DNA from: Bilabrum cf. latius
Taxonomy: Eukaryota
Direction: 5' to 3'
Assembly: GCA_965178125.1 (NCBI GenBank)
Contig: OZ237774.1
Span: forward strand, 434,001 to 498,000
Length of the DNA: 64,000 nucleotides
Shown here: positions 10,011 to 64,000 of the stretch, one piece after another
Layout of the letters: every line of letters starts with the position of its first letter
Position numbering within the stretch: position 1 is the stretch's first letter
Made by a program: the position numbers and the translations under genes
The notes under the pieces: model-generated
What the model saw: the letters and a program-made list of their open reading frames with translations, nothing else
Told to the model about the DNA's origin: nothing
Databases searched by the model: none

Positions 10011-10024
10011 TTTTGTTGTTGTAC

Positions 10025-10056: not shown

Positions 10057-10067
10057 TACGGGGCATC

Positions 10068-12507: not shown

Positions 12508-13938
12508 TCACGGCAGCTCAACTACACCGAACGCGATCGAGTCAGGCACGAAGATCGGCTGCACCACATCCGCCCGCTCGAATATGACCCCCACGGCCCC
12601 GCCCGGCAAGCCCACCAGCGCGCTGTAGGCACTGGCTCCCGGGTCCAGTACCCGCAGGGGCTCCCATGTCTCGCCCCTGTCCCCCGACCGAGACAGCGTG
12701 AGGTTCTGCCGGAGACCCAGGAGGCTGTCGTCGCTGAGGCTGGACAGGAGCAGTTGTTCCCTGGGCTCGTCCCACAGGATGGAGCCTTCCACGCCGTCAA
12801 GGGGCTGCGGCAGTCCGGGTTGCAGCTCGAGGTTCGTGAAGGTTCGTCCGCCGTCCTCGCTGCTGGCCTGGGAGCGGGAGAGCGCGAGGGTGCGGGCCGC
12901 GAGGACGAGTGTGCCTGCCGCTGGGCCGCTGGTTTCCCCGCTGCTGCTTTGTGGCGAGTGCTGCCTGCCAGCAGCTGGGATGTGTGCCAGCTGGCACTCG
13001 TTGGAGAACCACGGGTCGGTTTCGTTGGTCCACTCGAACGCGATGCTCCAGGTGATGCCCCCGTCGTCTGACGCGACGATGTGCGGGTGCGTGAAGGTGC
13101 CGTCCAGCCAGTGCACGGGGCTGTGATAACCGGGAAGCAGGATCCTGTACGGGGAATCGCTAGTCCCGGAGGCTTTAAGCCAGCCGGCTCTTGCGGGCGC
13201 TGTCCCTTGCTATGGGATGGGAGAAGGAAAAACTGACTAGGCGGGAACGACGAGGCCGCCCGGGGGTCCCAATCCGTACCATCCCCAGCCAGGCCTGGAG
13301 GCCTGGTCGGTGATGTCCCGCGGGGGATTCGCGAACGTTCGTCCGCCGTCGTCCGAGTGGGTCACCATCACGCGGCTGTTGTTCACGCAGAACGGAACCA
13401 AGAGGCGCCGCGCATCCGGAAGCCAGACTGGTGCCGCGTTGCCGACGACCGAGGGGCCCTCCGCATGCACCACCGTGGGGGCCTCGGACCAGGACTTGCC
13501 GCCGTCTGTGGAACGCTTGGACACGAGGTGCGTGGGGGCGTAATCGGAGCAGCTGCCCAGGCGGGCCTCCCCGAAGGCGACGAGCACCACATCGGCTGCT
13601 CGGTCCGCAAACTGCTCCGCGCCCGCCGATGCCGGTACGCGCACAATGTCTGGTATTTTAATGCAAAAGTAGCCTGCCTCGCCCTTGCGGAACACGTCCA
13701 CAGCTGCGATGCCGGTCCCGTTCGCAAACGGCGACGCTTGGAGACTTGGGTACTCGGCCGGTGCTAAGTGCTCAGGCTGGTGCCTGCGCCGATCGCGTGG
13801 GAGCCTATCTGAAATCGAATTCTTGAAGTTATGGTGCTGATGTTTAGCCTTGCTGAACGCGCGCGCAGATGCCATGATCAAGGCCAGTGAGATACATGCC
13901 GCTAGCTTGCGCTGCGGCAGCCCGTACGAGCACACCAT
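12508..13938 (-). CDS. Secreted sialidase/neuraminidase (GH33, BNR repeats), 476 aa
   Basis: Two same-frame ORFs joined through 2 TAGs. Five Asp-boxes (STDGGKSW, SDDGGRTF, SDDGGITW, SEDGGRTF, SGDRGETW), CIKIP (FRIP-like), SAYSAL, and a hydrophobic N-terminus. Confidence 0.88.
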
Positions 13939-14457
13939 AATAACTGGTAGCTCTCCAGGAGGAGCAGTGTATAGATCTCAGGGGTCTGAGTATCAGCGCA
14001 GCGAATCGCAAAACGTTGTAGAGAAGCCACTTGTATAGATTAGGTCGTAGTTGCAGTTCGGCGTGTTATAGCGTGTGGTTTTGGTGGCATCTCTCCGGTT
14101 TTGCAAGAAGCGAGCAGCAGCAGGGCGATGTTCGTGAGTCGGGACATTCGTCTGCCGTGCGCCAGAACCAATTCACAGCGTCTGATCGATGAAATCGCTA
14201 CTAATGTACCCATGAATCTCTCGTTGACTTGAATTGACTGCTTGGAAATCGCCGTGCGCCAGGAATCGCTAGGTCGGCCACGTCACGAACAAAGCTGTTG
14301 CAATTGAAAACTTGCAAGTACTGGCAGCGGTCCGCGAGGAAATAGTAGCCATCTTTAACGTTGGATTTCGCCAGAGCCGAGTTGCCCCAAGTCAGTTGGC
14401 TGTCTAGGTCCGACTAATTCGTCCGTTGGCTTCGCCGTCGTCGGCGATACACGAAAC

Positions 14458-16075
14458 ATGGGCTGCTGGCCGTCTCGCGCGGCTGTCATCGGAAGCGAAT
14501 CTTCGTCCTAGGCCGCAGATACCAGCTTAGGAAGCTCTAGCATTACAATTCGCGGCGCGTCTCAGAACGGCACGTCTTCTGGCGCCGCCGGTGCGGAGGT
14601 GGAGCCCAAGGGCGACGCAGACTACGAGTTTAGGGTGATCTACGACAAGTACGAGACGTTCGAGGAGGTCGCCGCGGCCCTGCGCGCCTCTGGTCTGGAA
14701 TCGAGCAATTTGGTCATGGCGGTGGACTACACCAAGTCTAACCAGTGGACCGGGGCCAAGTCATTCGGAGGCAGGTGCCTCCACGCCATGGGTGAAGCTG
14801 CTGGGGCTGCGGGTGGCAGGGTCGGTGGGATGGGTGGTGCTGGCAGCGGCAGCCCGGGACGATTCGGTGGAGGGGGCGGACCGTACCAAGGGTGGAATAG
14901 GGGCATGCGCGGCGGAAGCGGCAGGGGCAGGCAAATGACGGGGTCTGGCTTTTCGCCGTCTCGGTATGCGCAGGACGAGGACCCTACTGTGGGTCCCATA
15001 CGCCGGCGTTCGGACTCCCCCAGCGAACCTTCGCTTGCACCCCCGAAGAACCCCTACCAGAAAGTGATCGAGATCATCGGACGCACCCTGGCACCCTTCG
15101 ACGACGACAACATGATCCCTGCATTCGGGTTCGGGGATCTCACCACGGGCGACAGGTCCGTGTTCCCCTTCCTGCCCTCGAGGCCATGCAGGGGATTCGA
15201 GGAGGTGCTCGAGAGGTACGTCAGGATCACGCCGCAGCTGCAGCTGAGTGGTCCCACGAACTTTGCGCCCGCCATCGAGGCCACCATGCAGATCGTGCGG
15301 GAGACCGGTGTGAGACGGTGTGACGAGTGATGGATTCTCCTCGTGTGTATGTGTGTGTCTATGTTGGATCTGCACGCACCGGTTCTTTAGTCGGTGCGTG
15401 TGCGACCACCACGTAGCCCGTGACGAGTGCCGTGCTCCCGGTCCCGTCCTGCCCCTCCCTTCCCGCCCACCCATCCCAGGCGCGGTGTGGGATGGGCCAT
15501 CAATGCCCTCCCACTTGCTTCATACCCCCGGTAGCATTCTATCGTACATCTTAACCTTTTCTCCATCCCTCTCTCTCTTTTGATTCGCAGGGCTACCACA
15601 TCCTGCTCATCATCGCAGACGGCCAGGTCACGAACAAGGACCACACGGTGCGTGCCATCTGCGAGGCCAGCAAGATGCCCCTGTCCATCGTCATGGTGGG
15701 GGTGGGGGACGGGCCCTGGGATACCATGGAAGAATTCGACGACGGGTGAGATGCGATGCAGTGCAGTGCAGTGCAGTGCCATTGATCTGTCCTCCCCTCC
15801 TCAAGACGCCTTGGCACGGCATGGCATGGCATGGGAAGGAACTCCCTCTCGCCTTTCAGTCCCCCGCACTTGCACTCACACTCACTGCTCCGCCCCCCTC
15901 CACACTCATTGCACCTCGCAGTCTGCCCGAGCGTGACTTTGACAACTTCTAGTTCGTCAACTACACCAAGGTGGTCCGGGACAACCCCAGGAACCCCGAC
16001 GTGGCCTTCGCGATCGCGGCCCTGCAGGAGGTGCCAGAGCAGTTCGAGGCCATCAAGGCGCTCAAGCTGATCTGA
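14458..16075 (+). CDS. Copine/RGLG-like vWA-domain protein; join(14458..15309,15591..15745,15922..16075)
   Basis: MGCWPS acylation-type N-terminus; [54 protein letters not shown]. Two GTGAGA...GCAG introns restore the frame. Confidence 0.9.
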
Positions 16076-16243
16076 TGATCGGATCAAGGATCGGATCAGG
16101 GGAGTGGTGTGATGAGTTGCTCTGCCAATATGAGTGCCTGCACTGCACTGCACCGCACACTCGATCCGGATCTGATCGCGTTTGGATTTCTTAAACAAAA
16201 CGGTGTGCTGGTTTCGAATTCTTCGGTCAGGGCGTTGCATTCA

Positions 16244-17735: not shown

Positions 17736-19391
17736 TCATTCCGGCTGCCCGGCAGTCGCCGCCACTGCGCCCGACGCGATGCGAGCGTTGATGTCATCCA
17801 CGACGCCCGGCAGGTCCTCCACCCCCGAGATCACGTAGTGCGCCCCCGCCGCATGCATCGCTCCTTTGGCCACCTCTTCCCTGCGCGCGAGCTCCTCCGC
17901 TCCCAGGCCTTCCACCTCGCCCGCCCCCACGCCCACGTAGCTCCCGGTACGGGACACCCCCACGGTCCACATGCCGGCGTTTAGCCCCTCCGCAATCCCA
18001 GGGGTCGTGTCGTCCACTTTGACCACCGACCCCAGGGGGTACGCATTCAGGGCGGTTGCAACCTCCACGGCCATCCAGGGCGTGGGCCTCCCATTTGTTC
18101 CCTGGTCGTTCCCGCACGTCCACGCCTCGGGCAGGAGTCCCTGGGAGCGAGCTGCCTCCAGCACCACCTCCATGATCGGGCGGTTGTAACCGGAGCACAC
18201 GCCCTGCGATTGAATGGATGGGGCATATGGGACAGATGAGGCAAATGGGGCAGTAGGGGCAGTAGAGATATACGTAGGGCGCAAACGGCGGCACGGGGCG
18301 TGCATCATCCAACCAACGGGACACTCGGCCTCGCAGCACACCCGTCCCCCCTTCCAAACAGAGCAACATGCACATGCATCATCTCACGAATTTGACCCCC
18401 CTATCCTTGAGCCCCGCCTGCATCGCCAGGGCGCCAGGCACGAGGTCGGCGCATGTCTTGACGCACTCGATCTGCACCGGGGTGAAGCTGTCGTACAAGC
18501 GGTTCACGTCGTCCTGGTTGGGCGCTTTGCCTTCGTGCGCTTTTCTCCACACGGGATCCACCTCAGGGTCTTGCATCATCTGCCAGATGTGCTCCCGCTT
18601 GTTGAGGCCCATGGGGCGGCGGGCGGCGTCCTGCGAGGGGTAGCGAGCGAGCGAGCGAGCACGGCAGGATGAGCAAGATGCACGCAAGACTCTGCGCATT
18701 CAAGAGCAAGAGCGGTGCCAACCAGGCCATGCAACTACATCAGCTGACGGATCACCCAACGAAAATACTTCGAACAGCCCAAGATAGGCTGTGAATCTTG
18801 GTGCGGGCAATTGCATTGCTGCCTTTGGTGCAGCAGACACCCGACCCTAACGAAAAAATCAACCAAACAGCTCCGATCAATACAATGTATACTCAATTTT
18901 CAAATTGCTGCTTGCTTGTCGGACACTATTGCGCCAATAGGCAGATTCATTGCGAGATCCGGACGGGGACGCCGAGTTCCCGTAGACTCTTGGGTACACT
19001 AGCGACTAGCTTGCTTTGATCGCAATGTGAGAGTCTAGCATATGCATATACTATATATCGAGCGGGCCGCAGTTGTCCTGGGATGGTTCCAGCTAGCTAC
19101 TCTCCACATTTCACAGTTCTGTCGAGCGCGAGAATCCACGCATTGAATCTCTCTCACCACGGAAACTTCCACACCAACTCGTTTAAATACCTCCACAAAG
19201 GCAAGTACGGGGGCCACAGAACCGTGATCAACGAGAGTACCGGCCATGTCGCAGACGACAGCCTAGACGGGGGCCTTGCTGAACTCTTCGCGCTTAGCCA
19301 GGGCAGCGTGAGCTGACATGAGCCGAGCGCCGGCGCGAGACATGCCTCGATACATGCCGTTTGATACAGCTCGCTGCGTGGCACGCAGCAT
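17736..19391 (-). CDS. phnX: Phosphonoacetaldehyde hydrolase (phosphonatase, HAD family); exons 19391-19158, 18630-18388, 18203-17736
   Basis: V*AVVCDMAGTLVDHGSVAP, ARRPMGLNKREHI, GRPTPWM, VKVDDTTPGIAEGLNAGMWTVGV. Introns GTGAGA...TCGCAG. Start could alternatively be 19457. Confidence 0.9.
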
Positions 19392-19555: not shown

Positions 19556-21427
19556 TCAGCTACCCGTGTCCCCTCTGGCCAGCTGGATCACCGTCGCTGC
19601 GGTGCTCAGCAGCGCCACGGCGATGCCCAGCGACAGCGTGAACCAGGCAGTGCCGGCCTCAAGCTCGCTCACCTGCCCCGTCCCGCCGGGCATCGCCGGT
19701 CGGTGGTGTGACGAGTGAGGGCCTTCCGCTGGGGTTCCGCTGTCCCCCAGCTGGGGCGCGGCGCCGCCATCCGCCTTGCTCTCCGGATACGGATCCACAC
19801 CTGCCGCACTACCGTTCGATGCACCCGTCCACTCCGCCTCCGATCCCCACTATGAGCCCCCAAGCAACTTCACCCCTTGCCCCCCCCCCTCCCCCTCCCC
19901 CTCCCCACTCCCATCCTTGCCCCCGCCCCCCCCCTGCACCCACCACATCCTGAGCATCATCGCGCTGGGGTACACGTACATGAGCTGCACCGCCGCCAGG
20001 GCACCGGTCAGGCCAGTCACCACCCCAAGGTTCGGCACGCTCGCCCCCAGCGCGGTTGCAACCGCCACGCAGCCCACGGCCTCCCCTATCCTGTGCGCCC
20101 AGGTCACCGGGGCATCCCTTCCAAACAGCAGAGCGTGCACGGATTTCCTAAGTGCGAGCGCAATCAAGGGGAAGGAGAAGGCGATGACCACGGCGTACGC
20201 CAGCTTGATGAACGCCACGAAGGGGTACTGAGCCGACTTGAAGTTCGCGAGGATGTCAGATTCTGTGTTTTCCCGAAACAGCACGTAACCGAAGCACCCC
20301 ACGATGAGGTACAGCACGCAGCACGAGGCGAGGCCCACCCGAACTGCCGCCATCATCTTGCTCTTCTTGCTCTCGAACCGGCTGGCTCGCTCGTGGGTGG
20401 ACCGCCGCCGCAATTCCGTGTACAGCAGCAGGATGTTGTTATGGGCCACGTAGGCAGTGAACACCATGGGCACGGATTCGAGGAAGCTAAGGAAGCTGGA
20501 TGGCCCCGCCCTCACGACGTACCCTGGCAGCGGCTCGGTACGGTTGGCCCCCGCGCCGCCGTGCCCGGGATCGGATCCGGGGACTACTATCTTCTCGTCG
20601 TCGGGCACGAATTTGTCGTCGTGCAGCGCCAGTCCCGATACGACCGCCACCACCAGGACCGTTGCCCCCACGGCCACGACCGCCATGATGGAGGTGAACT
20701 TGAGCGCGTCCAGGTTGGCCAAAGAGGACAGGGGCAGGAAAATGACGGCGGCGCAGATGATCTGTATGAGCAATCGGCCCTTCCCGTGCCCCGGAGCGAA
20801 CGTTCCATCGTAAGGTTCGCCGTCGTGACCGTGCGGGGCCCATGCCGCGATGACGGAAGGAAGCAGGTCACCGATCACGACCGTGTACGAGCAGAGCAGC
20901 CCGAGATTCTGCACGATAATCGTGAGATCCACGACGGTACCGGCGGTGGGGCCGTATATCTTCGCAGCAGCCTGGGAGTAGAGCCGCGCCCGGGTGTGCT
21001 CGGTCGCGTGCAGCAGAAAGTACGCGGTTCGCTCCGAGAAGAAACCGATCAGCGCGATGAGAATCGCCCCCAGGGCCATGCCGTCCAGCCGAGTGGCATA
21101 CGGGAGACCTAACGCTCCGGCACCAAGCACCGAATTGATCACGTTGAACAGCGTCGCCCGCAGGCTCGCTTCTTCGAACACGACTGGAGTGGAATCGCGT
21201 GGCTCCGGTTGGGCGCCCTCGATGCCCGCCGAGGACAGTACCGACGTGCTTGCCCGATCTCCAAGTTTTGGTGTCGGGGTTAGTACGTCGGGATCGTTTG
21301 AGCCGGTCGAAATGACGTGCTGAATCCCATTCGGCGGACCAAGCAGCGGGCCATCCGCGGACCCGCTGTTCGCATACGATCCCTAATTGACGGATGGATC
21401 AAGCAGTGCCTAGCTGCGGTGCTCCAT
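19556..21427 (-). CDS. Amino-acid permease (AAAP/SLC38-like), 623 aa
   Basis: FNVINSVLGAGALGLPYA and many TM helices. The final TM helix lies beyond TAG19850 in the same frame; upstream extension to ATG21427 crosses 2 TAGs. Confidence 0.88.
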
Positions 21428-21631
21428 ACCGTATGTGTACTGCAGGCGATTCTTGCCGCTGATTAACGAACGTTGGGACCACAGATAGCAGTAGTTTCAG
21501 TACCAAGCGCCGCTTCCCTCTATGGTTCCGCAGTGCCGAGTTGTCGTGCGCGGCGCCACTGCGGAGGAAACTGCAGCATCTTTGCGACGTGGAGGCCTGT
21601 ATTCTCATTGCATTGGTTTGGTTCTCATCTA

Positions 21632-24448
21632 ATGCAGGCGACACGACGAACATTATTTGCAGCAGGACAGAGAATACTTTATGGAACGAAGAGGGGTGTG
21701 TCAGTCCTGCATTCTAAGTTTGCTACGTCATCTGCCTGTCGGCACGCTCAGAGAGGCAACGCAGGTTACCATGCGCCTAGCTTGCAGGCATTCGGATACA
21801 GAAGCAGTCTTAGACGAGGTGTGTTTGGCGCAGCAAGCTGTAAAGCGAGGAGATTGCCCGCAAAAGCCAGCTGCAAATGTACTGCCACGGGAGCTAGTTA
21901 TTCCAGCAGCCCAGCAGCACATAGCGGTGAACCTAGGCAACACGAGTGGAATAATTGGTTGATGCAGGAAACAGATCCTTCACCGCGCTCGGCCGTACCG
22001 ATAAAGAGGCGAGCAGGTGCCCGGTCCTTTAGCTCGTCAGCTGTAGGATCAAAGCGAAGCAGCCGCACGCACTGGTCCGCCTTAGCTGGTTCACAGTTAA
22101 TGCAGAGCTCCCGCCCGAATGGATTGTGTGCGGTCCAGTCGCTTAGCGGTCGCATGGGTGCTCGCTTGCCTGCACCGATCTCGATTTCGATCTCGTCTCA
22201 CCAGCAGCGGCGGCACGGCTCCACCAAGCCGAGCACCAGTGCGAGCTCGTCGGCCGGTGTGACGAGCGGTAGCAGGCCCGATGATGGTTCGGGCGTTGTG
22301 ACGAGTATCCGTGGGGTGGGACCGTTCGGCCCCGGTGGGGAGGGCCGGGCGGTGGTCGAGGGCGCGGATGACGAGCAGCCCGGCCTGCCCGGAGCCATTG
22401 CCCAGGCGTTCCGTGGGGTGTTCTTCCAGCAGAGGGATGAAGATACAAACAAAAGGCAGCGGAACGGGCACTCAGCTGACAGCTGGAGTGCGACGGGTAG
22501 CGTTGGGAGCATCGGGGGTGAGAGCGGCGAAGCAGAGGCGCCAGAAGGCAAGCAGGACGACCAGGCGAAGAAGAGCAAGCAGAGCCCCTGGCAGCGGCTG
22601 ATGACCATCGTGAAAACCGGCAAGCTCCCCGCCGACGACACCGAGGATGACACGTCCGCGGAGCAGGGAACAAGGGAGGCTGACAACCTGGACGAGAGGA
22701 CACTCGAAGCCAGGAGGGGAGCCACCCTCAGGAGGATGGCGGAGTTCGCCTGGCCCGAGAGGCATCGCATTGCGGTGGCGGTGTCCACCCTGGGTGTGAC
22801 GACTACGATCTCGCTTGTGTTCCCCTGGGCCCTGGGCAAGATCCTGGACGTCGCCCTGCAGCCGGATCCTTAGTTCACCCCCGGGACGATCGCGGCCGGT
22901 ATGCTGGGGCTGTTCGCCGTGCAGGTGGGGCTGATCGTGGTGCGGTCCGCGATGCTGTCGGTGGCCGGCGAGCGGATCGCCGCGAGCGTGAGGAAGGACA
23001 CCTTCCGCGCACTCGTCACACAGGAGGTCTCGTACTTCGACGCGCGCCGGACGGGGGACCTGATGAACAGGCTCTCCTCGGACACGGTGGTGGTGCAGAA
23101 GGCGCTCACATCCAACGTGGCGCAGATGCTGCGGAACGGCTTCATGTCGGTCGGCGCCGCCGGGATGCTGTTCACCCTTTCACCCCAGCTGGCGGCTCTG
23201 AGTCTTTGCCTCATCCCGCCCGTGGCACTGGGTGGGATTGGTTTCGGGAGGTACGTGAGGAGGCAGCAGGGGCGCGTGCAGGAGGAGCTGGGCAGAACAC
23301 TCGAAGTGGCTGGGGAACTGCTGTCCCATCTCAGGACCGTGCGGCACTTCGCCTCTGAGGGAAGGGAACTGGGGAGGTTCAGTGCGGCAGTGGAGAGAGC
23401 CTTCGAATAGGGAAGGAGGGTGGGTGTGGCGCAGGCCGCGTTCGACGGCGCGGTGCATTTGGCGGTCGATCTGTCGCTTCTTGCCGTGCTGTTTTATGGT
23501 GGCACTCTGGTGCAGGAAGGGAGCCTTTCGGCGGGTGACCTCACTGCATTCCTGATGTACTCTTTGTACGCTGGTGGCAATCTGGCGGGGCTGTCCTCTG
23601 TGTATGCAGAGCTGATGAAGGGTGTGGGTGCCTCTCGCCGAATCATTGAGGTGGCAGACAGGAAGCCGGCGCTGCCGCTCACCGGTGGTGTGGTGCTGCC
23701 ATCCGTGGCGGGCGAGGTGGAGTTCAGGGGCGTCTCCTTCGCGTATCCGTAGAGGTAGGACGTTCAGGTGCTTGACGGGATGGACCTCGTCCTGGGGGCG
23801 GGGGAATCCATCAGCCTCGTGGGGGGCTCCGGATCGGGCAAGTCCACGGTGGGCTCTCTGCTCACCGGGCTGTACGTGCCGGATGAGGGTCAGGTGCTGC
23901 TGGACGGGAAGGACATCGCGACTCTGGACCCCTCATGGATGCGTGGCAGTGCCATCGGGGTGGTGCAGCAAGAGCCCGTGCTGTTCTCCGGGTCCATCGG
24001 GTCCAATATACTGTACGGGCGACCCTCGGCCACTGAGGCTGACGTCAGGAGGGCAGCGGCGGAGGCGAACGCGGCCGAGTTCATAGAGGCTTTGCCCCTC
24101 GGGTATGACACTCCCGTGGGGGAGAGGGGCATGCAGCTGTCGGGGGGGCAGAGGGCGCGAGTGGCGATCGCTAGGCTTCTGCTTAAGGCCCCCCCCGTGG
24201 CCGTGCTCGACGAAGCCACCGCGGCCCTGGATGCAAACTCCGAGAAGGCTGTTTCGGAGGCTTTGCTGAGGGCGATGGAGGGCAGGACGGTGCTGCAGAT
24301 CGCGCACCGGCTGTCCACCATCCGGCACGCGAAGGAGGCTGCAGTGCTGGAGGACGGGCGGGTGGCGGAGCGTGGGCCGGTGGACGAGCTGCTTCGGAGG
24401 GAGGAGGGCGTGTTTAGGCGGCTGGTGCAGCAGCAGATGGTGGGCTGA
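21632..24448 (+). CDS. Mitochondrial ABCB half-transporter (ABCB10/MDL1-like), 938 aa
   Basis: Four ORF pieces in one frame joined by TAGs (22871, 23408, 23750, 23756). TMD RTGDLMNRLSSDT, Walker A GGSGSGKS, signature LSGGQ, Walker B VLDEAT, and an Arg-rich presequence. Confidence 0.9.
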
Positions 24449-49916: not shown

Positions 49917-50948
49917 TGCGAGTGAGAAAATGGTTAATAGTGCAAGCTGGATGAGGAGCAGCGATGTTCAACGAAGCGTCACCGAATGGGAGCGGCGTGT
50001 CGACCATGCGGACATTGTGCCGCACTTCCTGCAGTGGCCCTTTCAGTACAGCCTCTTGAGTACGTCCAGTGATGCATAACGCATGAACTCTTACTCACAG
50101 AAATCAATGGTGTCCCTTTCATCTCCTGGAGCCATCTCCAGAGATCGGGATGTGCTGCATGAAGTTCGCAGCGATGCAGTGTCAGCATGCTGTGCATTCG
50201 ACGTCGTTCCGTTTCGACGAGGACTATGCGCAATTGCAGTACTCAATAGTGCCCATCTGACATAATGTGACCCGGACTGGATACCCACAGAGCCACGCAA
50301 GCCCAGCTAGACAGGACGGCTCCGACGAGGTGTAGTGTAGCAGCGGACGTCCTCATCGCAGCCGTTCAGTCCGCAGGCGTCCATGCCAGCAGGTGCAATC
50401 AGTGCTTTGCATCCAACAATATTGCCAGTAGACGCCAGAAGGGTGCACGTGAAGGATGCACTGCCAAGTGCGGCAAGAAGTCTCATTGCAGCCAGCGTTA
50501 CGCGTGCCAAAATCCGATTGCTGTTGGATGAACCTCGAGCTAATCAATCAGTCTTATCCAAAAGTACCGGATACCATCGCAAGGTGTTGTGTACTCCCCG
50601 CCTATGCGCCCGTGCCAGTCTCGATTGGCCGCGCCTGGGTGTGATGATGGCTGCTCGCAGACTGGAAGCTTGCTTGCTCGCTTGCAGCTTTTTGATTTCA
50701 CAACCCCTATTTTCGGCGCACCGATGATGATATGGCGAGAAACAGCTGCACGTGTAAATGGGTGGGAATGGAACCGAATCTAGTTCGTTTCCTCGCGCAC
50801 ATGCATCCAGCCATCCAGCCCCCTTCGGCACACAAACACATCGCCATCGCCCACCCTCCGCCCAATCGTTCCTGCCCGCAATCATGCAACCCCGTCATCC
50901 TCCCATCCACCACCCGGATCCCGTGACTGCACTTGTCACACCCCATCC

Positions 50949-52581: not shown

Positions 52582-55500
52582 TCACTCGTCACTGTCCTCT
52601 TCTGCCGCCATGAGTCCGGGCAGCCCCGGAATGCTCTGCATCGACACCTGATGCTCCCGAAGCAAAGCGGCGCGGTCACGGGACCTGTCCCTTGCCCCCT
52701 CCTCCTCCTCCTCCTCGTCCTCGAATCCGGCATCGTCCGCCTGGCCCCAGGCCACGTCATCGATCCCCTCGGGGGCGCCGCCCGCGCCGGTCGCATCGCG
52801 CGGCGCCGGCTCCCCAGCGGAACCTCCAGAACGCTCCGAGCTGGTTCTGGCCCGACCTGCGGAACCGCCCTATTTTCTGCGCGGCGCCGCTCCCGACCCC
52901 TTGCGCCGGGCCACGGGACCTGCACCACCCTGCACTGCAACCTCCCCTCCCCCCGCGACGTTCGCTTTGTTCCCTGGAGTCGTCTTGGCCTCCAGCTCCA
53001 GGATTCGATCCCGCACCGACAGCACCCTCGCAGCCTGGCTCAGCATCACCGGCTCTTTCCCATTCCCATTCCCATTCCCATTCCCATTCCCATTCCCATT
53101 CCCATTCCCACTGCCGGTGCCGCTGCCGCCACCGCTTGTGCTGGATTCGGTGCCAGCACCTGCGCCGCTCCCCTGCCCCTGGGTCTCTGTCTCGCTGGGG
53201 GGGGGCAGGATGGGTCCGGCGCCCACCACCCGGGGGCCCCCCCCACCCGGTTGCAACCGCCTCCCCCCGGCGGCACCGCCCTCCACGCTGCTGTCATCGT
53301 CATCCACATCATCCAGGCCAGCGCTGGCACCGCCCACCTGCCCGCCCCGCCCCTTGTTCCCTGGTTCCTTGTTCCCTGGGACCCTCCCACTCGCACTCGC
53401 ACTCGCGGGGATCGGCACGGGCGCCTTGGCCGAAGACGACCTTCGCTTGGGGCCGCGAGGGGGCGGCTTGCGCTCCGAAGCGGTCGAGTTCGTGAGGGGG
53501 GCGGCACTCGTCACACCATTCCCACCGGGGGAATCCCTCTCGACCCCTCGGAAACCCCCAGGTGGGGACGGCTGCGCGGACGAATCCCCCCCCTCCCCCC
53601 CGGCATCACCCCCCACCGCCCTGGGCTTGCCCACAGGGGTGTCGAGGGCCCGGAGCTCGCTGGCGGGAGGCTGTCGCTGCCTGTGCTTCTTCCACTTGTC
53701 GCTGGGAAGAAGACGGGCGAGGGGGTCGGGAAGCTCCTCCACGCGGCGCCGCACCCGGTTCCGCACGGTCCGAGACACGGCCTGCGCGCCCGCCAGCAGC
53801 CCAAGGCCCTCCCCCTCCTCCTCGGAGCCGGGGACGGGGCCCTGGAGCGCACTCGTCACACTGGGCTCCAGCAACAGCTGCGTGGCCTCCGTCCCCTGCT
53901 CCAACGCCTCCCGCCACTGGCCGTCCCGTGTCGCCAGCGCGCCCGCAGCCATGTTCCGCGCCTGCTCAACGGACACTAGGCCGTCCCCCTCCGACGAGAC
54001 GTCGGCACCGGCACCGCCGTGCAGTGCACTCTTCCTTGCCTCCTCGATCGCACTCGTCACACCCTGCGCCAGGCTCCCGATCCCCGCCCGCGCCTCCGCC
54101 AGCGCCCCCTCCATGGCCGCCGACCGGAGCTCCGCGGCGTCCGCGTCCGATCGCGATGCCCGCCCCGCCTCCCGCTCCGCCTCGAGAGCCGCCTGCAGCG
54201 CGGACACCTCCCCCTTCGCCTGCAGCGCCTGAAGCGCCACCGAACGTTCCCTGGCCTCCGACGCCCGCAGGCGTGACACGGCCTCCGACAGGCTCGAGGG
54301 AGTGCCCGTCGCACTCGTCACACCTCCCTAATTGCCGCCCTGCCGCACCGCCCTCTTGGAGGCACGGCGAGATGCCGCCTCCACCAGCGCCTCCGGGGAG
54401 AGCCCCTGGGCCGCTCCCCTGACCGCTTCGAGGGCGAGCGTGAGAGTGTCCGCGGGTGCACTGCCTTGCGCCGCCTTCCCTTGTTCCCTGGCCCGCGCGA
54501 GCTCCTCCTTCGCCCTCCTGTGTTCCCTACGAACCTTCAGCAGCTTCCTCCTCAACCTGTCGGCGTACCCCTTCATCCCCCTGGCGGCCTCAGCCTGCGC
54601 CTGCATCACCAGCCAGGCCTGCTGCACCCCCTCACCCAGGGAGGACAGGGCGGCCAGCTCGGAGGGGCCCAGCCGAGGGGGGTCCTGCCAGGACACGGCC
54701 CTCAGCGAACGTTCCTCCCGAGAGAACCCGCTGTCCTCCTCCTCCTCGTCATCCTGCCCCCCCTCGCCCTAGCTCGCCTGCTCCTCCCGGCGGAGAACAG
54801 CTGTCCTATCTTCATCTTCATGCGAGCGGGGTACATCCCCACCGCCCTTGCCCAGATCAGGCCCTGCACTACCGCCCGTTTCTTCCTCTTCCTCTTCCTC
54901 TTCGTCCTCGCTCTCGCTGTCACTTGCCACCACGAGCGGACCCCCGCGGCGGGGGGCCAGCTGCAGGCCCGCACTCGTCACACCGCCTGCAGCCGGACGC
55001 TGGTCCCGCCCCTGCCCCTGCTGCTCTTCTTTCTCCTCCTCGTGCATCGCCAGCGCTGCCGCCATCACCGCATCTCTGCTGTCAGCGACAGTGCCATCTC
55101 CATCACCCCCTGCCCCGCTGCCGGACCCAGGCCCAGGCCCAGAGACCACCATGCTAGACCCAGAGCCGGCCGCAGTGGCAGCAGCCGCCCCGGCCTCGGT
55201 CCCCCCCGCTGCCTCGCCGCCCTAGACCCCACCCCCCTGGTAGGACTCGGGCACGCCCTTGCCGCTGAGCATCTTCTGCGTGGCGGCAGCGTTCAGCAAC
55301 CGCTCCTGCTCATCGTGCATGCTCGCCTCGCGTGCCAGGGCGATTTGGGCCGCTTCTGCATCCTGCGCCGCCTTCTCGTCCTCAGCTGCTAGGGGACCGA
55401 GCGCGGCCGGGCGAGCACCATCGGAGCCATCGGGGAGCTCTGCCGACTCGGGGACCATTTCCAGCCAGGCATTCGTCTCCTCCTTGGATTCCCCGTAGAA

Positions 55501-55824
55501 ATAAAAATAGCGCCCCGCCTTGGTTTCTATCTCCAGCACGACTGGCTTGCCGTCCGCCGTGAAGCGCGAGGTCAGTTGCATCATGGCCCCGTCGAGCGAT
55601 AGGATGCCCTTGGGTTCCTTGGAAACCGGGGACTCGAAGTAGTACATAAGGTATCCGGCTAAAACGCACCAGCGCCGCTGCCACGAACCCACCCAGCTAT
55701 TCTCCGATCGCTTGAGCAGCCAGCCCTTGCGGATCGCGTCCGCAGCCACGTCCTCCGCACCAGCCACATCATATGGCTCAATGCCTTCCTTCGCCTCATC
55801 AGGTCTCAAATTACGCACTGCCAT
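52582..55824 (-). CDS. PH-domain coiled-coil protein, 1080 aa
   Basis: IRKGWLLKRS...WQRRWCVL...PKGILSL...ETNAW PH domain. Same-frame ORFs joined by TAGs to TGA52582; (GN)n microsatellite at about 53058-53110. Confidence 0.8.
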
Positions 55825-56411
55825 TCCGAAACGCGGAATTCAATAGTATTGGCGAGCCAAGTGAATTCAAGATCCCCGCAGTTTCCTTTGCACGAGCCCA
55901 GTTGGGTGATTTGATATACGCAAACTACACCGTACATTTCCGCGAAGCATGCAAGCTGCTTTTTCGCTATTTGCGCGAGGCAGCATAGATATCTGAAGCT
56001 CTCCTGGCTTCTAGGTGTTTTGTGTGCAAGTGTGAGCTGGTGCATTTTAAAATATTCCATGGAAACTCGGGGAGGTTTGATTTGTACTCTGCGCAGTCGC
56101 TTCCAGTCCGATCGATGCGAGTGTTGCTCGTTTCAGTCGGCGCATGACGTGTTTAAAGCTGTCGAGTCGTACAGCTTAGACTTTATTGTACATGCTCTGC
56201 ATTCCGCGGTTACTCAAGTACTGCGTACCGCGTGGTTTGACTGAGTCCTCCGGCCGGCTCCGCCCCGGGCACTTGATTGCCTCTATCGTTGATTCCAGCG
56301 TTACGCAGTGACAATACGCGAACTATCACATCATCATATTCTCATTTCCATCACAGGATCGGTACGCTCAATTGAAAGCACCTGCACCGGTTGAAATCGA
56401 ACGCGCACCAC

Positions 56412-59400
56412 ATGTCGTCCAGACGTCGCGATGAGGATGCAGACCAGGAAGTTGACGCCGATGCGCTGCTGACGAGTGCGGAGGCGCAAGACGACGAGGC
56501 CACGCTGGAGGAGGAGGAGAGGCATGGCGTGGACGAGGGCGTGCTGACGGGGCAGGAGGAGGAGGCGGCGCTGGCAGCCGAGGCCGACATGCCGCTGGAG
56601 CAGCTGATGGCCATGTACGCCATGCAGCGGGGAGACGATGAGGAGAAAGATGGCGAGATGGAGTAGGGTGGGGATGGGGGTGAGTAGGCAGGAGCGGGTG
56701 GGAACGGCAAGCAAGCTAAAGAAGCAGCTGGCAGCGATTCATCATCGACCCCAACCGAACCAACTGCTACGTAGTCGAGCCAGGATCAGGCCAAAGTCCG
56801 GGACTCAGCTGGCATGAGTAGAACATCAGCAGGTGCATCGCACGGTGGTGCTTCCATGGCCCCACCGCCAGTTGCTATCCCGGCATCGAACCCCGGACCC
56901 GGCTCCTCCCAGTCCCCGTCTCGGTCCCCCGGACGGCGCCGCGCAAGACTAGGTTCCGCAGGGTCCTCGGACCCCGCTACCCCAAGGGGTTCGTTCCCCG
57001 CCATGTCCCCCCCGCCCACCCCCACGGTGGGGTTGCCCTCCCCCGTGGTCCGGGTGAGGGCACCCCCCACCATGACTGTCGCGCAGCAGAATGCGCGGCG
57101 CCGATAGCTGCGGAACCGGAGGGAGGGATGGGCCAGGCGCGCCACGCTGGCCCAGCTGGATGCGCGGCGCGCTGGACTGACGGCGCGGCTGGGGCGGCTG
57201 TGGGTGGGGGAGGCCAGCGGCTGGCGGTGGGGGCTGGATGGGGAGTGCGGGGCGCGGGCGGGGGCGGGAGTGGGAGTGGGAGTTGGAGTTGCCTCGGGGG
57301 ATGGATCCAGTTCCGGTGATGGCATGGTCGATTACGATAGCAATAGTGATGGCAATGGGGATGGCAAAGGGGGTGATGACGGGACGGGGATGAATGGCCC
57401 GAGCTTGCCGGGTGCGATTATGGGTGCACTGCACGGGAGTGCAGAGGTAATGTGGGTGGATCTGCCGTCGAGCACCGCGAGTGCATTGCATGGTGGTGCG
57501 ACCCGCGGGCTGGCGTACTCCGATGATCTAGCGGGGGGTGATGTAACCCAGGGGGATTCCCCTGGCATTTTGGGGACATCGCCAGGTGCACCCCCCAAGC
57601 GAGGGGGGCGTGGCCGTGGGACAAGAGGTCGCAGCAGGGGCAGGGGTCGTGGCAGGGGGAGGGGCAGGGGCAGGGGTCGCGCAGGGGCATCGAACGGTGG
57701 TGCCGGTGGCCCAGCTGGGATTGGTGCTGGTGGTAACACGACTAGCAGCAGCAGCAGCGGTGGTGGTGCTGGTAGTGGTGCCAGCGGATTGCCGTCCTCT
57801 GCTGATTGGGGCCAGTTCGGGCTGAGGCTGGGCACCTCTCTTGTTCCCTGGGGCTGGTCCGTGCCGAGATAGGTGCTGGGGACAGAGCGGGCGGAGGCAG
57901 CTGCCGCGGGATAGGTTGAGGGTGTGACGAGTGTGATGAGCGGGTCGGAGCGGGAACGGGCAGCTGCGCTGGCCGAGGTTGCCTCCCACTCGTCACACCT
58001 TCCCCTGCTGCCGCCGCACCCCGCGCTGGACGACAGGGACACGGCTCCCTGGGCTGCCGCCGGGGCGGTGGAGAGCCTGCTGGCGGTGGCGCAGTCAACG
58101 GACACATGGGGGGATGGTCGGCCAACGGACAGCGGCATGACAGATGGTGATTCCGGTGGGGCTGTGGTCCAGGGAACAAGGGACCGGTCGTCCTCGTCGG
58201 TGCCGACAGCTGTGGGAAGGGGCTAGAGGCGGGCAGCGGCCGAGGCGATCGTGCGGGTGGCGACGGAGGCGTTGCGGGCTGGTGCACTGCACGGTGGTGC
58301 TAGTGGGAAAGGCGCCGCACGTGTCGCGGGGGGTCGGGGAGTCGCTGGTGCTGCTGGTGGGAAGCGGCGGAAGGTGGAATTGGGTGCATTGCACGGTGGT
58401 GCAACCACGCCCACGTTGCCGGACCTGCCGCAAGGACTGGTATCCGCCTGGGCATTCGCCTCCGGACTTGCCAGGGTGCAACGCACTGCAGCGGATGAAG
58501 CAGAAGCTCGCGGCGAAGGAGCTTCACGGGTCCAGGCACCGATGGAGGGGGGCGCCGCGCACTCGGTTCCGCTGGAGTACACCGCCGCGGCCGCGCTGAC
58601 AGCCCAGGCGTGGGAGCAGAGCAAGACCGCCGGGTCCGGTTCCGCAGCGCGCGGCGCCGGCGTGGACGTCAGGGCGGAGTTCCACGCAGTCGCCGGGGTG
58701 CAGGGGCAGGGCACGATGCTGGAGGCGGCGCCGCTCGACTCCTCGCTGGGGCAGGGTGCAGCGCATTGGGGTGCGGGTCCGGGGGCGATGGTCAGCAGGA
58801 ACGGCTCTGTGGCTGGCAGCGGGGGAGATGCCATGGATGACGGGGGTCACGGTGGAGCGGCCTCTGTGCTCGGCATGGGCAGCGGGCTCGCATCCATCGA
58901 GGTAGTTGGAGCGGGAGCGGGGTCAGCTGGGGGTGCGGTATTGGAGGGCGCATCCAGGGGGAAGGGAGGCGGCAGAAGCACGACCAACACTCTCCCGCTT
59001 GGGGTGCGGGTGTGGGGCAAGAGCGCGGGCCCGGCCTGGGCCGATGCAGCCGTGGCGGGCGTGGTGGCCAAAGTGGAGTCTATGCAAGAGACTGACGCTA
59101 GCACTCCTGGGTCTCGTTCCCGGGATGATTCGGGCTCCACCCTCATGGCCTCTCGCCTCAAGAAGCTCACAACGGGTCCAGAGCCGCCCAAAGTCCTCGT
59201 GTCGGGGCGGGTGGCCACGCGAGCGGCCGCGCTGGCAGAGCGTGCGTGGGGGTTTCTGCGGCGGGAGCTGGCCGGTGCAGGGGAGGCCCGGCCTGACGCA
59301 GACGAGGGCGTGCTGGACGCGCTTGCAGTGCCCCCCGCGGCGCCGCGCGAGAGCGGAACCTCCTCCCAGGACGTGCACTGGGACTTTGTGCTCAAGGAGG

Positions 59401-62400
59401 GCGGCTGGATGGCGGAGGATTTCAGGGCCGAGCGGGCCAGGCTGAGGAAGAGGAGGAAGGCGATCGTGGCCGCCGTGAAGAAGTACCACTCCAAGCAGCA
59501 GGCGCGGGCCATCGAGGTGCGTAGGAGGAACGAGCAGAGGAGGAGAAGGCGGGCGGGGGCCATCGCGGGGCACGTGGCCCGGTGGTGGCGGTCCGTGGAT
59601 CGACTCATCGTGTACAAGCACGAGTCCAGGCTGGATGCACTTAGGCGAGATGCGCTCGAGAGGAGGCTGGATCGGCTGGTGGCGGAGACGAAGGGGTACA
59701 CGACGGACTTGGCGGGGGGGGTGGGGGTATCGGAGGGGGGGGACCCGCAGGGTGGGGGCAAGAGGTCGGGGGTGTCCAGCGCGGAAGCCGCTGCCTCAGC
59801 GGCGGCGAGTGATTCCGTGGTTGCAACCGCATCCCGGGACACAGGTGAAGAATCAGCTAGCCGCCCAAGGGGGCGGGGTGTGGGTGGCATCGAGGTGGGG
59901 CATGATCGTGTGAATCGGGGGGACAAGAGCAAGGGGAAGGGCAGGGACGACAACGATGCTGAGGTGGACGCCGACGCGCTGCTGACGAGTGCGGAGGCGC
60001 AAGACGACGAGGCCACGCTAGAGGAGGAGGAGAGGCATGGCGTGGACGAGGGCGTGCTGACGGGGCAGGAGGAGGAGGCGGCGCTGGCAGCCGAGGCCGA
60101 CATGCCGCTGGAGCAGCTGATGGCCATGTACGCCATGCAGCGGGGAGACGATGAGGAGAAAGAGGGGAACTAGGGTGATGAGGATGGCCAGAGTGGGAAG
60201 GTGGACAAACTGGGAGTCGCCCGCGGGTCCCGCAAGAGCAAGCGCAAGCAGAGCCAGGCAAGTATGCAGGACGATGAGGGCGAGGGCGAAGAGGAAGATG
60301 AATAGGAGGTGGTGGAAGTCAGCGCAGGAAATTCTCCTGCCGATGGTGGGGCCAAAGCAGCACCATCAACAGCACCAGCACCTGGCACCGCCTCTGCTGC
60401 TGAGGCACGTGCATCCGCAAGACCAACCAGGGGCAGTCAGAAACAGGCAGCCAAGCAAAAGGCTGATAGTGATGGTGATGAGGACGACGACGACGATGAA
60501 GTCGATGAGGGCGCCTTGCTGACGAGTGCAGAGGCACAGGATGACGAGGCCACGCTAGAGGAGGAAGAGAGGCTGGCAGAGCTGGAGAGGAGAGAGAGGA
60601 GGAGGAAGAAGAGGGCAGCCGCCGCTGCGAATGCTTCTTCTTCTTCTGTTTCAGATGGCACAGGAGACAATGCAGGCAGCAATCAAGGGGGGGGTAGCAG
60701 ACGGGCCGCGACCGGGGCGGGGCTGCGGCTGGCTGGGCGCAAGCGCACCCGCTCGGAGGCCGGGGCAGGGGCAGGCGGAACCGGAGCCGTTATTGAGGCT
60801 AGCGGTGCCATTTCCGGCTCCGAGTCAGAGGACGACGAGCTGGCCGTGTTGCAGCGGGACGCCGATCTGCCGCTGGACGAGCTGAGGGCCATGTACGGGG
60901 CCGGTGGAGCGCAAGCAGCCGATGGGCAGGAGGATGCGGGGGTGCAAGGGGGCAATGAGGCGCAGGGCATAGAGGAGGAGAAGGAGGATGAGGATGAGGA
61001 AGAGGAGGAGGACAGGCCACCGGCGAGGAAGAGGAGGAGGAGGGCGGCGGCGAGGGCAGCGGCGGAGTCGCTCAGTAGGGGGGGGTCCCCTGGGGGGGGG
61101 CCTGGGCGGGGGGTGAATTCCCCTGGGGCTGGCGGGGGTGCGACCCCCCCCATGGCGGGGGGAGAGGACCAGGAGGGGGAGGAGAACGACCTTCCCCTGA
61201 TGATTCCCGATTCCGAGTCCCCGTATGCCACCCCCGTGCCTTTTTTGCTGCGGAGAGGGTATCTGCTGAGGAGCTACCAGAGGGAGGGGCTGGACTGGCT
61301 GGCGGGGCTGCACGACAGGGGGCTGAATGGCATCCTGGCCGATGAGATGGGGCTGGGCAAGACACTGCAGACGGTGAGTCTGCTGGCTCACCTCGCCTCG
61401 CATAGGGGGGTGTGGGGCCCGCACCTGATCATCGTGCCCACCAGCACGCTGCTCAACTGGGAGGCCGAGCTCAGGCGCTGGTGTCCCGCACTCAAGGTGG
61501 TGACCTACTACGGATCGGCAAAGGAAAGGAAGGCCAAGAGGGTCGGGTGGGGACACCCCAACGCCTTCCACGCACTCGTCACATCCTACCAGCTGGCCGT
61601 GCAGGACGTGTCGGTCCTCCGCCGGAGGAAGTGGTACTACATGGTGCTGGACGAGGCGCATTTCATCAAGAACTACCAGAGCGCACGATGGCAGGCCCTC
61701 ATGAGCTACAGGAGCCACCGGCGGCTGCTCCTCACCGGCACGCCCCTGCAGAACAACATGGGGGAGCTGTGGGCTCTCCTGCACTTCCTCATGCCTCACC
61801 TGTTCCGGTCCGCCCTCGAGTTCAGGGAGTGGTTCGCGGCTCCGCTGGCACAGCAGGCCAAGCAGCAGGCGGGGCAGTAGGCCGCGGCTGGGGGGGCGAG
61901 TGGTGCCGGCGGGGCTGCAGGGGGGGTGTCCGGTGGGGCGGTGGCCCCCCGGGATCGAGCCCTGGTGAGGCGTCTTCACGCGGTGCTGCGTCCTTTTTTG
62001 CTTCGGCGGCTCAAGTCAGAGGTGGCCAAGCAGCTGCCCGGTAAGTCCGAGGTGGTGGTGGTATGTCCGTTGAGCAGGCGGCAGAGGGGCCTGTATGAGG
62101 AGTTCCTGCAGAGGGCCTCTGTCAGGTCCGTGCTGCTGGGCAAGAAGAAGAAGAAGAAGAAGAAGAAGAAGAGAAGGACCCGAGGGGCGCAGCTGCTCGC
62201 GGGGCCAGGGGATGTCCCCACCCGGGGGTACGCGGGCATGATGTGGGTGCTCATGCAGCTGCGGAAGGTCTGCAACCACCCGGATCTGTTCCTGCCCAGG
62301 CCCGTGTGGTCGCCGCTCACGCCACCCCGTGTGACGATTGAGATGCCGGCAGTGTTGAGGCCACGGGGAGTATCAGCGGTGGGGCTGCGGTGGGGCGGGG

Positions 62401-64000
62401 TGGGGGCGCTGGCCACCCCCTAGGGGATGGTGGGGGACCCCCGCATGGGGGGCCCGGGGCTGAGGGTAGTGGGGGGGGGTGCGTCGGGCGCGGGAGGTGG
62501 GGGCACTGGAAGCGGCTCCTCTCTAGGCAGCGGGGGCCTGCTGGCGTGCATCGCCGGCGCCTTTGCCGAGGGCACGTGGGCCTATGACGGGGGGCAGGGG
62601 CTGGCGGGGGGCCTGGCGGGCACTTCCGGTTTGGCGTCGCTGTCGGGCCGGGAGGGGTGGTGGACGGGCCCCCGGGGGTCGGGCCGCATCCAGAGGGGGG
62701 AGTTCCTCGCGGGGGGTGGGCCTAAGGCCGCCAAGGAGAGGAGGGAGGAGCTGGACAGGGGCAGGGAGCAGCGAGGGAACAAGGGGTGCAGGCTACCCTC
62801 TTGGGTGCTGGGCATGCGGGCCGTCTGGTGGGGACCTCTGGCATCCTCGTCTTCCTCTTCAGCGGCGGGGGGCTCCTCGGCTGCCCTGTCAGTGGGGGCG
62901 GCCGGCCCCCCGGGGCTGCTGCCCGCCGGTGCCGTGCTGCGGAGGGTCCGGGGGGGTTAGGGCGGCAGGGGGCGGTGGGTCGGTGTGACGAGTGCGGGGT
63001 CTGTGGGGCCCAGTGCGCGCCGGCACCTTTTGGGCTCAGGGGCCTCGGGTGCTTCTGGCCCCCAGCGGTGCATGGGTGCGTGCAGCCTGGGATCGTTCGG
63101 TAGGAAGGCGGTGTGGGTGATGGACGATCTGGAGGTGCAGGGAGGAGGAGGACGATATAGGGGTGTGACGAGTGAAGGGGGTGTGACGAGCGGTGGTCTT
63201 GGTCTCCTCGAAGGAGCCCTGGGCGCGTCCATCCGATCCGGGGTGCACCTGGGCCGGCTGGGCCTGCTGATGGCGGACCGAGCGCAGGCTGGGGAGAGCA
63301 GGGGGGTGCATGAGAGAGCGAGGCAGCTGGGGGTGGGGGTGGCCAAAGCGGCGCTGGCGTGGCTCTTGGGGCCTGAGGGCGGGTCCGCTGCCGAGGAGAA
63401 GAAGGAGAAGGAGAAGGAGAAGCACAACGGCTGGAACCTGTCGGGTGCTGGCCGTGGGCCCGCTGTGGGGTGGAAAGGGGCTGCCCAGGGTGCCAGGGGG
63501 CGGGGTCCTCACGGCCATGGGGGAACTGGGAGGGAAGGTGCTGGTGCCGGTGCTGGTGCAGCTGCCAGTCGCCGCCTGCTTCCCTCGGATAGTGTGACGA
63601 GCGCGGAGATGTTCCTGGTGCGGGCGCAGGCCAGCGGGTGCGGGCTGGATGCCGCGCTGGGGCAGGTGGCCGCGGCGCAGGACGCGAGGAAGGGCGGTGT
63701 GACGAGTGGATCCAAGGGGGGCAAAGGCAAAGGCAAAGGCAAGGGGCAGGGAGCAGCGCCGGGCCCCAAGGTCAGTGACGGGCAAAAGCAGCAGCAGGCG
63801 CAGGATCCGATCCAGGCGATCGAGGCCGCTTTGGCCAGGGCCTGCGCCACCGCCCGAGTGACCCCCGGTGACCTGGGCAAAGCCGTGGGCATGATGCTCT
63901 GGAGGCAGTGCGCCGCCGAGGTCGCCGACAGGTTCGATGCCCCGGCCAGCACGCGGCGGGTCGTGGCCGCGCTCCTGGGCCAGGGAACACAGGCGTCCAG
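56412..64000 (+). CDS. SWR1: SWR1/SRCAP/PIE1 SNF2-family chromatin remodeler, 3' partial
   Basis: Single frame interrupted only by TAGs. HSA HWDFVLKEGGWMAEDF, NGILADEMGLGKT, LDEAH, LLLTGTPLQN, MQLRKVCNHPDLF. Confidence 0.9.
56454..60162 (+). repeat. About 200-bp near-identical intragenic duplication (about 56454-56650 and 59966-60162); partial third copy near 60515-60570
   Basis: Both copies encode DADALLTSAEAQDDEATLEEEERHG...PLEQLMAMYAMQRGDDEEK. Confidence 0.9.

Follow-up and report, generated by a model that had tools for sequence, protein, structure and literature searches.

How are in-frame TAG triplets read in the nuclear genes of Bilabrum cf. latius, and does TAA still end genes there? 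These questions are raised by a stretch of 64,000 nucleotides of contig OZ237774.1 (assembly GCA_965178125.1, positions 434,001 to 498,000, forward strand), called here the window and numbered from its first letter. An earlier note, made from sequence positions 12508-64000, had proposed that UAG encodes glutamine in this genome and that UAA stays a stop. Our analysis points the same way. It is very probable that UAG is glutamine in the nuclear genes, that UGA is the main stop, that UAA acts as a stop and encodes no amino acid, and that a virophage occupying the left part of the window shares this code. The core of this reading, that UAG means glutamine and UAA is no sense codon, has good support.

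TAG is a sense codon in host genes

Base composition divides the window, with about 63% GC beyond ~11,867 and 38% from 1 to ~11,867. The GC-rich part, hereafter the host part, comes from a eukaryotic nucleus and contains GT..AG introns of 176-527 nt. Finding exons from the GC content of third codon positions (GC3) proved too weak; tests of open reading frame (ORF) length and of the flanks of stop triplets were used instead. Under the standard code, the longest stop-free frames in 12508-64000 have 1110, 961 and 648 codons. When TAG is taken as sense, the longest frames reach 2541, 1619, 1333, 1085, 993 and 863 codons; when TAA is taken as sense, they are unchanged (1110, 961 and 648 codons). 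In the flank test, a codon-usage score trained on host ORFs was applied to both flanks of every stop triplet in six frames. Within the host part, both flanks scored as coding at 18 of 620 TAG, 0 of 307 TAA and 0 of 1197 TGA triplets. Read-through of TAG in host genes is far beyond chance.

Protein domains also span TAGs. The ABC_membrane and ABC_tran domains of an ABCB half-transporter contain four of them, and its alignment to solved ABCB structures is unbroken across all four. Other TAG-bearing ORFs have Aa_trans, SNF2/HSA and PH domains. Frame lengths, domains and the flank test agree with the earlier claim that host genes need TAG read-through, and the three TAGs named at that time lie exactly where they had been placed: copine, 15950-15952, plus strand; PiT, 24787-24789, plus strand; phosphonatase, 19265-19263, minus strand.

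The fate of TAGs in transcripts was followed in public sequencing runs. X1 is a DNA run, which goes straight through introns that contigs of X5-X7 join. The latter are three public runs from two studies other than that of X1. Their records do not list them as RNA, and X5 carries a flag of probable DNA; intron-less joints are the mark of a transcript here, and from such spliced contigs we infer the RNA nature of these runs. The families found in host ORFs are HSA+SNF2, ABCB half-transporter, amino-acid transporter, PH, PiT, DHDPS, BNR/sialidase-like, UBA-SEP and copine/RGLG-like, and many host ORFs have long low-complexity stretches. The host features are as follows.

12508..13977, minus strand: BNR/sialidase-like gene (PF13088); TAG at 13239 and 13212; ends TGA TGA; covered by X5 record 8
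14458..16075, plus strand: copine/RGLG-like gene; TAG at 14509 and 15950; ends TGA TGA; spliced contigs in X5 and X6
17736..19391, minus strand: phosphonoacetaldehyde-hydrolase-like gene (phosphonatase); TAG at 19265-19263; ends TGA; spliced contigs in X5, X6 and X7
19556..21496, minus strand: amino-acid transporter ORF (PF01490, E 1.2e-54); 3 TAG; ends TGA; X5 record 12, X7 record 23
21467..24448, plus strand: ABCB half-transporter (PF00664 and PF00005); TAG at 22871, 23408, 23750 and 23756; ends TGA; X5 record 13, X7 record 25
24637..26660, plus strand: PiT phosphate transporter in two exons (PF01384); TAG at 24787, 24841, 25287 and 25740; ends TGA; intron ~25080-25200, with approximate bounds
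35741..36709, plus strand: DHDPS-family exon (PF00701, E 1.2e-78); ends TGA
37199..41200, plus strand: ORF of 1333 codons with a weak Ints3_N match; 5 TAG; ends TGA
42314..44905, plus strand: ORF of 863 codons; 6 TAG; ends TGA
45108..49967, minus strand: ORF of 1619 codons; 3 TAG; ends TGA
52582..55839, minus strand: PH-domain ORF of 1085 codons (PF00169); 4 TAG; ends TGA
56376..63998, plus strand: HSA+SNF2 (SWR1/SRCAP-like) ORF of 2541 codons, open at the window end (PF00176, E 2.4e-81; PF07529); 12 TAG

In the copine gene, contigs connect 15309 with 15591 and 15744 with 15921 (plus strand), at GT..AG borders, and both TAGs are present in spliced contigs of X5 and X6. The phosphonatase exons lie at 19409-19157, 18629-18387 and from 18202 onwards, with minus-strand joints 18202/18387 and 18629/19157; the TAG of this gene is present in spliced contigs of X5, X6 and X7. 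The four TAGs of ABCB and two of the transporter lie within gene-sized contigs of X5 and X7, and those of BNR within an X5 contig. The listed contig pieces over host TAGs have no other letter at these positions. Since the TAGs stand unchanged in spliced contigs, splicing-out and editing are excluded for these genes. Removal of the TAGs from transcripts had been named in the earlier note as one observation that would count against it; the spliced contigs hold the TAG exons unchanged.

The TAGs could otherwise be defects, due to pseudogenes, C-to-T hypermutation or assembly error, or be removed by splicing or editing. Integrated viral elements are often degraded, and the account of such elements in PMC10120064 reports premature stops as assembly artefacts, which counts for a reading as defects. 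However, TAG is the only stop triplet in frame in ~13,500 host and virophage codons, with 0 TAA and 0 TGA, and hypermutation would also make CAA into TAA. Moreover, transcript-type contigs of other runs carry the same TAGs and are spliced correctly around them, and independent metagenome contigs, presented below, show the same pattern. The probability left to this explanation is negligible, and we consider it refuted.

A virophage with in-frame TAG and its metagenome relatives

The GC profile, Pfam matches and a step in sequencing depth delimit a virophage in the left part of the window. The following features were found.

1..11867 (right end ~11867): mavirus-like virophage, 38% GC, left part beyond the window
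557..1672, plus strand: penton (minor capsid) gene (PF21507, E 1.6e-10); 12 TAG; ends TGA; 51% identical end-to-end to its orthologue in metagenome locus L003
1751..3517, plus strand: major capsid protein (MCP) gene (PF21915, PF22031); 14 TAG; ends TGA; 59% identical to the L003 MCP
3573..4190, plus strand: putative packaging ATPase (weak AAA_24 match, E 0.005); 8 TAG; ends TGA; conserved L003 orthologue
4216..5472, plus strand: ORF of 418 codons; 11 TAG; ends TAA, with the ATG of the next gene 20 nt downstream
5493..6134, plus strand: ORF of 213 codons; 9 TAG; ends TGA
6450..8291, minus strand: protein-primed family B DNA polymerase (PolB; PF03175, 24.7 bits, just below the cut-off of 25.8); 4 TAG; ends TGA
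8349..10010, minus strand: primase-helicase, DUF5906/VapE-like (PF19263, E 3.6e-15); 10 TAG; ends TGA
10068..11123, minus strand: rve integrase with chromodomain (PF00665, PF00385); 5 TAG; ends TGA

Several features of the class are present: a Sputnik-type double jelly-roll MCP and a penton, together with a mavirus-type PolB, rve integrase and primase-helicase. The Pfam cut-offs are passed by rve with its chromodomain and by DUF5906. For the maturation cysteine protease, no protease family was matched by Pfam among the virophage ORFs. The genes called viral in the earlier note are those of this virophage; that it uses TAG as a sense codon itself had gone unmentioned. Under the standard code, its longest frames have 231 and 211 codons, and TAA as sense gives 260 at most. 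TAG as sense gives 619, 594, 572, 421 and 418 codons.

In run X1, word depth is ~513 over the virophage (4001-11867) versus 9.3 over the host flank (11868-24000), and X1 contigs have loose ends at the right end of the virophage, 11867, leading into other flanks. Depth and loose ends together indicate many copies, integrated or free: the virophage is present in tens of copies per genome, or is free and replicating in the culture. X1 also contains a variant virophage copy with 10 differences over 5403-11136. No contig of X5-X7 was placed over the virophage genes at 4001-11337, which has no bearing on expression. The segment 11338-12004 is covered in transcript-type runs, with different flanks from 11867 and 11934. 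A tRNA scan found no tRNA gene in the virophage part within the window.

A protein search with the window MCP returned two sequences, P0001 (87% identical) and P0002 (60% identical). With the same query, IMG/VR and a first metagenome scan gave no relative; a second metagenome scan, with P0002 as the query, gave six loci, L001-L006. The MCP of these six loci is 60% identical, and the whole gene is present in three of them (L001-L003, 44-45% GC). There, 6 TAG and 0 TAA stand in frame in the MCP gene, and long ORFs appear only with TAG as sense. The genomes L001-L003 are near-identical and count as one witness, not three. Scans of L001-L006 for tRNA genes and Rfam families found nothing.

The P0002 cluster contains fragments of 109-150 residues beside full-length forms, and the DNA of its members from the Joint Genome Institute (JGI) has TAG where P0002 has Q. 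Some sources evidently read TAG as Q in gene calling. More generally, public capsid entries are either fragments or full-length with Q, and the pipelines evidently used different codes. Our literature search, for which supplementary files were outside reach, yielded no publication on virophages that use TAG in frame. A recoded virophage clade, integrated as well as environmental, appears new.

TAG aligns with glutamine

For homologue searches, TAG was translated as X, which avoids circularity. In the copine gene, the column of the TAG at 15950 (FDNF-X-FV) has Q in 79 of the 89 homologues covering it, from 150 examined and 91 matching that exon. The first PiT TAG column has Q in 108 of 120 homologues, and the Thermotoga PiT structure also has Q. 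At the second PiT column, the 120 homologues show Q 62, E 30 and H 11 times. The earlier note had placed TAG at conserved glutamine sites in three genes. This stands for copine and PiT; at the phosphonatase site, the 4 alignments shown, from 7 solved homologues matched, have E instead of Q. Over the seven host columns with homologue sets, the joint log-odds are +11.6 bits for Q, with T next at -8.0; K has -9.7 and E -10.7.

The virophage provides a second comparison, since L003 contains end-to-end orthologues of six window genes. The L003 partners of 54 aligned window TAGs are CAA/CAG at 16, TAG at 7, Lys at 6, Glu at 5 and ten other residues at 20 positions. In the opposite direction, 28 L003 TAGs face TAG 7, Q 6 and K 5 times in the window. 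Ordinary Q codons spread similarly between the window and L003, and Q is the commonest partner of TAG in both directions.

TAG may also encode another residue, such as Glu or Lys. The phosphonatase column, with E in solved homologues, fits this possibility, as do Lys and Glu as the next commonest L003 partners of window TAGs and the four ABCB columns, where 93 to 119 homologues have G/A/S, L, T/S and P. The latter columns are variable and uninformative on the residue. On the other side, three strongly conserved host columns are Q, the joint log-odds for K and E are strongly negative, and the virophage comparison favors Q both ways. A residue other than glutamine is thus extremely unlikely. We also looked for another amino acid dominating the TAG columns, an outcome foreseen in the earlier note, and there is none. 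Host Q columns, joint log-odds and virophage orthologues agree on UAG as glutamine and, as far as alignment with homologues can tell, the residue of the TAG columns is shown to be glutamine.

TAA stays out of frames and stands at the ends of virophage genes

The ten virophage ORFs, counted from the first ATG, comprise 3612 codons with 74 TAG, 0 TAA and 0 TGA in frame. TAG makes up ~38% of the virophage glutamine codons. Codons ending in A are preferred there at ~2:1 (CAA 83/CAG 36, GAA 168/GAG 64, AAA 204/AAG 94). With such a preference, TAA, if it encoded glutamine, should be at least as frequent as TAG, and it is absent. In-frame TAA, which the earlier note expected from an ordinary code, was thus sought within the window where low GC (38%) favors it, without a single case. 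Regarding gene ends, TGA closes seven virophage ORFs and TAA the other three, and ~13 host ORFs end in TGA. It had been stated before that modelled genes end in TGA or TAA and need no in-frame TAA, and this description is borne out.

The metagenome relatives allow gene ends to be compared. Among ORFs of at least 150 codons, TAA and TGA end 8 and 4 in L003, 6 and 2 in L001, and 2 and 2 in L002. The ATPase aligns from residues 2-205 in the window to 4-206 of 206 in L003; the window gene ends in TGA and the L003 gene in TAA, after the same aligned last residue. PolB has 613 residues in both, with 61% identity; the two genes end at matching positions of the alignment, with TGA for the window and TAA for L003. 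The L003 orthologue of the 418-codon ORF ends in TAA too, with an alignment reaching within 5 residues of both ends. TAA at aligned orthologue ends is what a working stop codon would give. It had been noted earlier that the evidence for TAA as a stop was mainly viral. This still holds, and the evidence is firmer now through the orthologous gene ends, with no convincing host case. The host candidates for a TAA end are the ORF 27473-29011, with no family match and no codon bias, the TAA at 35383 and antisense frames. The TAA at 35383 lies inside a GTAAG-type splice site, after an exon upstream of the DHDPS exon.

An ordinary code in which UAA and UAG (UAR) both encode glutamine (NCBI table 6), with TAA rare only through GC-richness, would explain why all ~13 host ORFs end in TGA, as expected where TGA is the only stop. 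In addition, the host uses CAG 6 times as often as CAA, which leads one to expect few TAA. The virophage speaks against it, with 0 TAA versus 74 TAG in 3612 codons despite its ~2:1 preference for A-ending codons. L001-L003 also have no in-frame TAA, most of their ORFs end in TAA, and the L003 TAA ends of the ATPase and PolB genes align with window TGA ends. Furthermore, TAA read-through meaningfully lengthens no host or virophage gene. The ordinary UAR code is therefore largely refuted, and we hold it to be very unlikely.

A nearer alternative keeps UAG as glutamine and has UAA avoided or poorly read by the host, with no working stop function; the TAA ends of the virophage would then be tolerated read-through or depend on giant-virus factors. 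It is in line with the lack of a convincing TAA-ended host gene in the window and with an AT-rich window virophage that itself ends 7 of 10 ORFs in TGA. However, TAA is the majority ending in the metagenome relatives and falls exactly at orthologous C-termini, which makes this alternative unlikely.

Several points weigh against UAG as glutamine with UAA as a working stop. Homologues do not have Gln as the typical residue at the four ABCB sites or at the phosphonatase site. The ~13 host ORFs all end in TGA. Host genes by themselves make a modest case against TAA as glutamine: given a CAA:CAG ratio of 51:295 and the 39 TAG of the training ORFs, ~3 to 7 in-frame TAA are expected and 0 are seen. 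Host TAA is shown as non-sense, and the stop role of TAA in viral genes only. Factors of a giant virus could, in principle, help terminate virophage genes. Finally, P0001 has Q at 13 of 13 covered window TAG positions, which we do not count as evidence; this agreement may be worthless, as its source may itself have read TAG as Q.

In the favored reading, with UAG as glutamine and UAA as a stop, the organism would read UAG as glutamine throughout its nuclear genes, UGA would be the main stop, and UAA would be no sense codon and would act as a stop. As judged from other such codes, this would involve a tRNA-Gln with anticodon CUA, unable to pair with UAA, and an eRF1 blind to UAG that would still recognize UAA and UGA, a mechanism described for these codes in PMC11687900. 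The integrated virophage would be translated by the same machinery and would have adopted the same code. Scans of the whole window found no tRNA gene and no Rfam match, and eRF1 is not among the genes of the window.

Comparison with known codes and recoded viruses

The code with TAG as glutamine is NCBI table 15. In what PMC5304391 and PMC11687900 say of such codes, UAG=Gln with UAA kept as a stop occurs in Iotanema spirale (a fornicate), Protocruzia tuzeti and two phyllopharyngean ciliate lineages; other UAG-only changes listed there are UAG=Leu in a rhizarian and a ciliate, and UAG=Ser in Scotinosphaera. The window resembles Iotanema, Protocruzia and the phyllopharyngeans in that TAG is glutamine and TAA is non-sense. 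It differs from the Iotanema and ciliate cases in its 63% GC, its GT..AG introns of 176-527 nt and its very long low-complexity proteins. Moreover, its best named protein matches, at 53-58% identity at most, are to a bicosoecid, oomycetes and algae, and not to ciliates or metamonads/fornicates.

Codes in which UAR is glutamine are found in many ciliates, Hexamita, Streblomastix, some ulvophytes and Amoeboaphelidium. They share the change from stop to glutamine; there, TAA is also glutamine, whereas in the window it stays out of frames and ends genes. An aphelid host was considered and dropped, as Amoeboaphelidium is cited as UAR=Gln in PMC5304391 and PMC11687900, and the best matches are not fungal or opisthokont. 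For ABCB and PiT, the two host proteins searched, no closer relative was found in a collection of 5.8 billion proteins. P0251, an ENA protein, is 84% identical to the first copine exon. A search of the ESM Atlas with the DHDPS exon returned bacterial DHDPS clusters only.

The host DNA thus offers a code of a type that is already known, in a lineage that appears new; our literature search found no stramenopile or flagellate with UAG=Gln. We give about even chances to a broader proposal, that this is an unrecognized non-ciliate protist lineage, possibly a heterotrophic stramenopile, in which UAG alone became glutamine independently, with a virophage clade in the same code.

With regard to the virophage, integrated polinton-like viruses of Streblomastix strix follow the UAR=Gln code of their host, as described in PMC10120064. 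They are alike in being integrated small DNA viruses in the deviant code of the host, which suggests a long association. Here, in contrast, the element is a Sputnik/mavirus-type virophage, the code is TAG-only, and free or unplaced metagenome relatives have the same code. The genome of the flagellate Cafeteria, which is high in GC, contains many copies of endogenous mavirus-like elements that are low in GC and carry protein-primed PolB, rve integrase, helicase and capsid genes. These elements are not known to deviate from the standard code. The gene set, low GC and multiple copies are alike, whereas the window virophage has 74 in-frame TAG. TAG-recoded phages (code 15) also have genes full of in-frame TAG read as glutamine; such a phage infects a host that has kept the standard code and often supplies a suppressor tRNA itself. 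In the present case, recoding extends to the host genes, and neither the virophage part within the window nor the six metagenome loci have a tRNA gene.

Codes splitting UAG from UAA are rare and bear on how stop-codon reassignment starts. A further non-ciliate case would lend itself well to studies of tRNA-Gln(CUA) and eRF1 specificity, as public DNA and transcript data exist and a multi-copy virophage is under the opposite base-composition pressure. If the broader proposal of a separate lineage with its virophage clade is true, the AT-rich virophage would amount to a natural experiment in which UAA is seen to be closed to sense use. In practice, ordinary gene callers will break up genes in this genome and in related virophage contigs, as seen in the metagenome MCPs recorded as fragments of 109-150 residues. 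The code could also help to assign uncultured virophages to hosts. If the broader proposal is true, in-frame TAG together with TAA stops would be a mark linking uncultured virophages, and perhaps giant viruses, to the host lineage.

Further features of the host DNA

The vWA-type domain of the copine contains an in-frame, Gly/Arg-rich low-complexity insert at 14850-15040. A transcript contig keeps this insert, which is therefore not an intron. At 26700-34100, ~7 kb of host DNA have a lower GC content (56-58%). Ten ORFs were scanned with Pfam; none of the six that lie in 27-34 kb matched a family, including the TAA-ended ORFs 27473-29011 and 31721-32545. Around 33.4-33.7 kb, a translatable sequence occurs three times, possibly as a repeat or as part of a degraded mobile element.

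Two short words recur in the host DNA. The 12-mer GTGTGACGAGTG has 49 copies with at most one mismatch in 12600-64000, where 0.23 are expected, and the 10-mer GTGACGAGTG has 42 exact copies. Copies of either are restricted to host DNA, with none in the virophage. The 12-mer is found, for example, at 38387, 39653, 40421, 46430, 53514, 54321 and 62985, with unconserved flanks. In long ORFs, it uses a single frame, reading (G)VTS in sense and HSSH in antisense, though a second frame is also open. One copy lies 8 nt inside a copine intron. Some contigs of other runs leave the window at 15334, just past this copy, and the new sequence opens with another copy. The word could serve in binding or recombination, as a hyper-abundant site, or be the footprint of a mobile element. 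The second word, GGTGCA-y-TGCACGGTGGTGCA, has a small hairpin (TGCAC / GTGCA) and is found, for example, at 57429 and 58287; in several long host ORFs, it reads in frame as ALHGGA or (A/S)HG(G/S)A.

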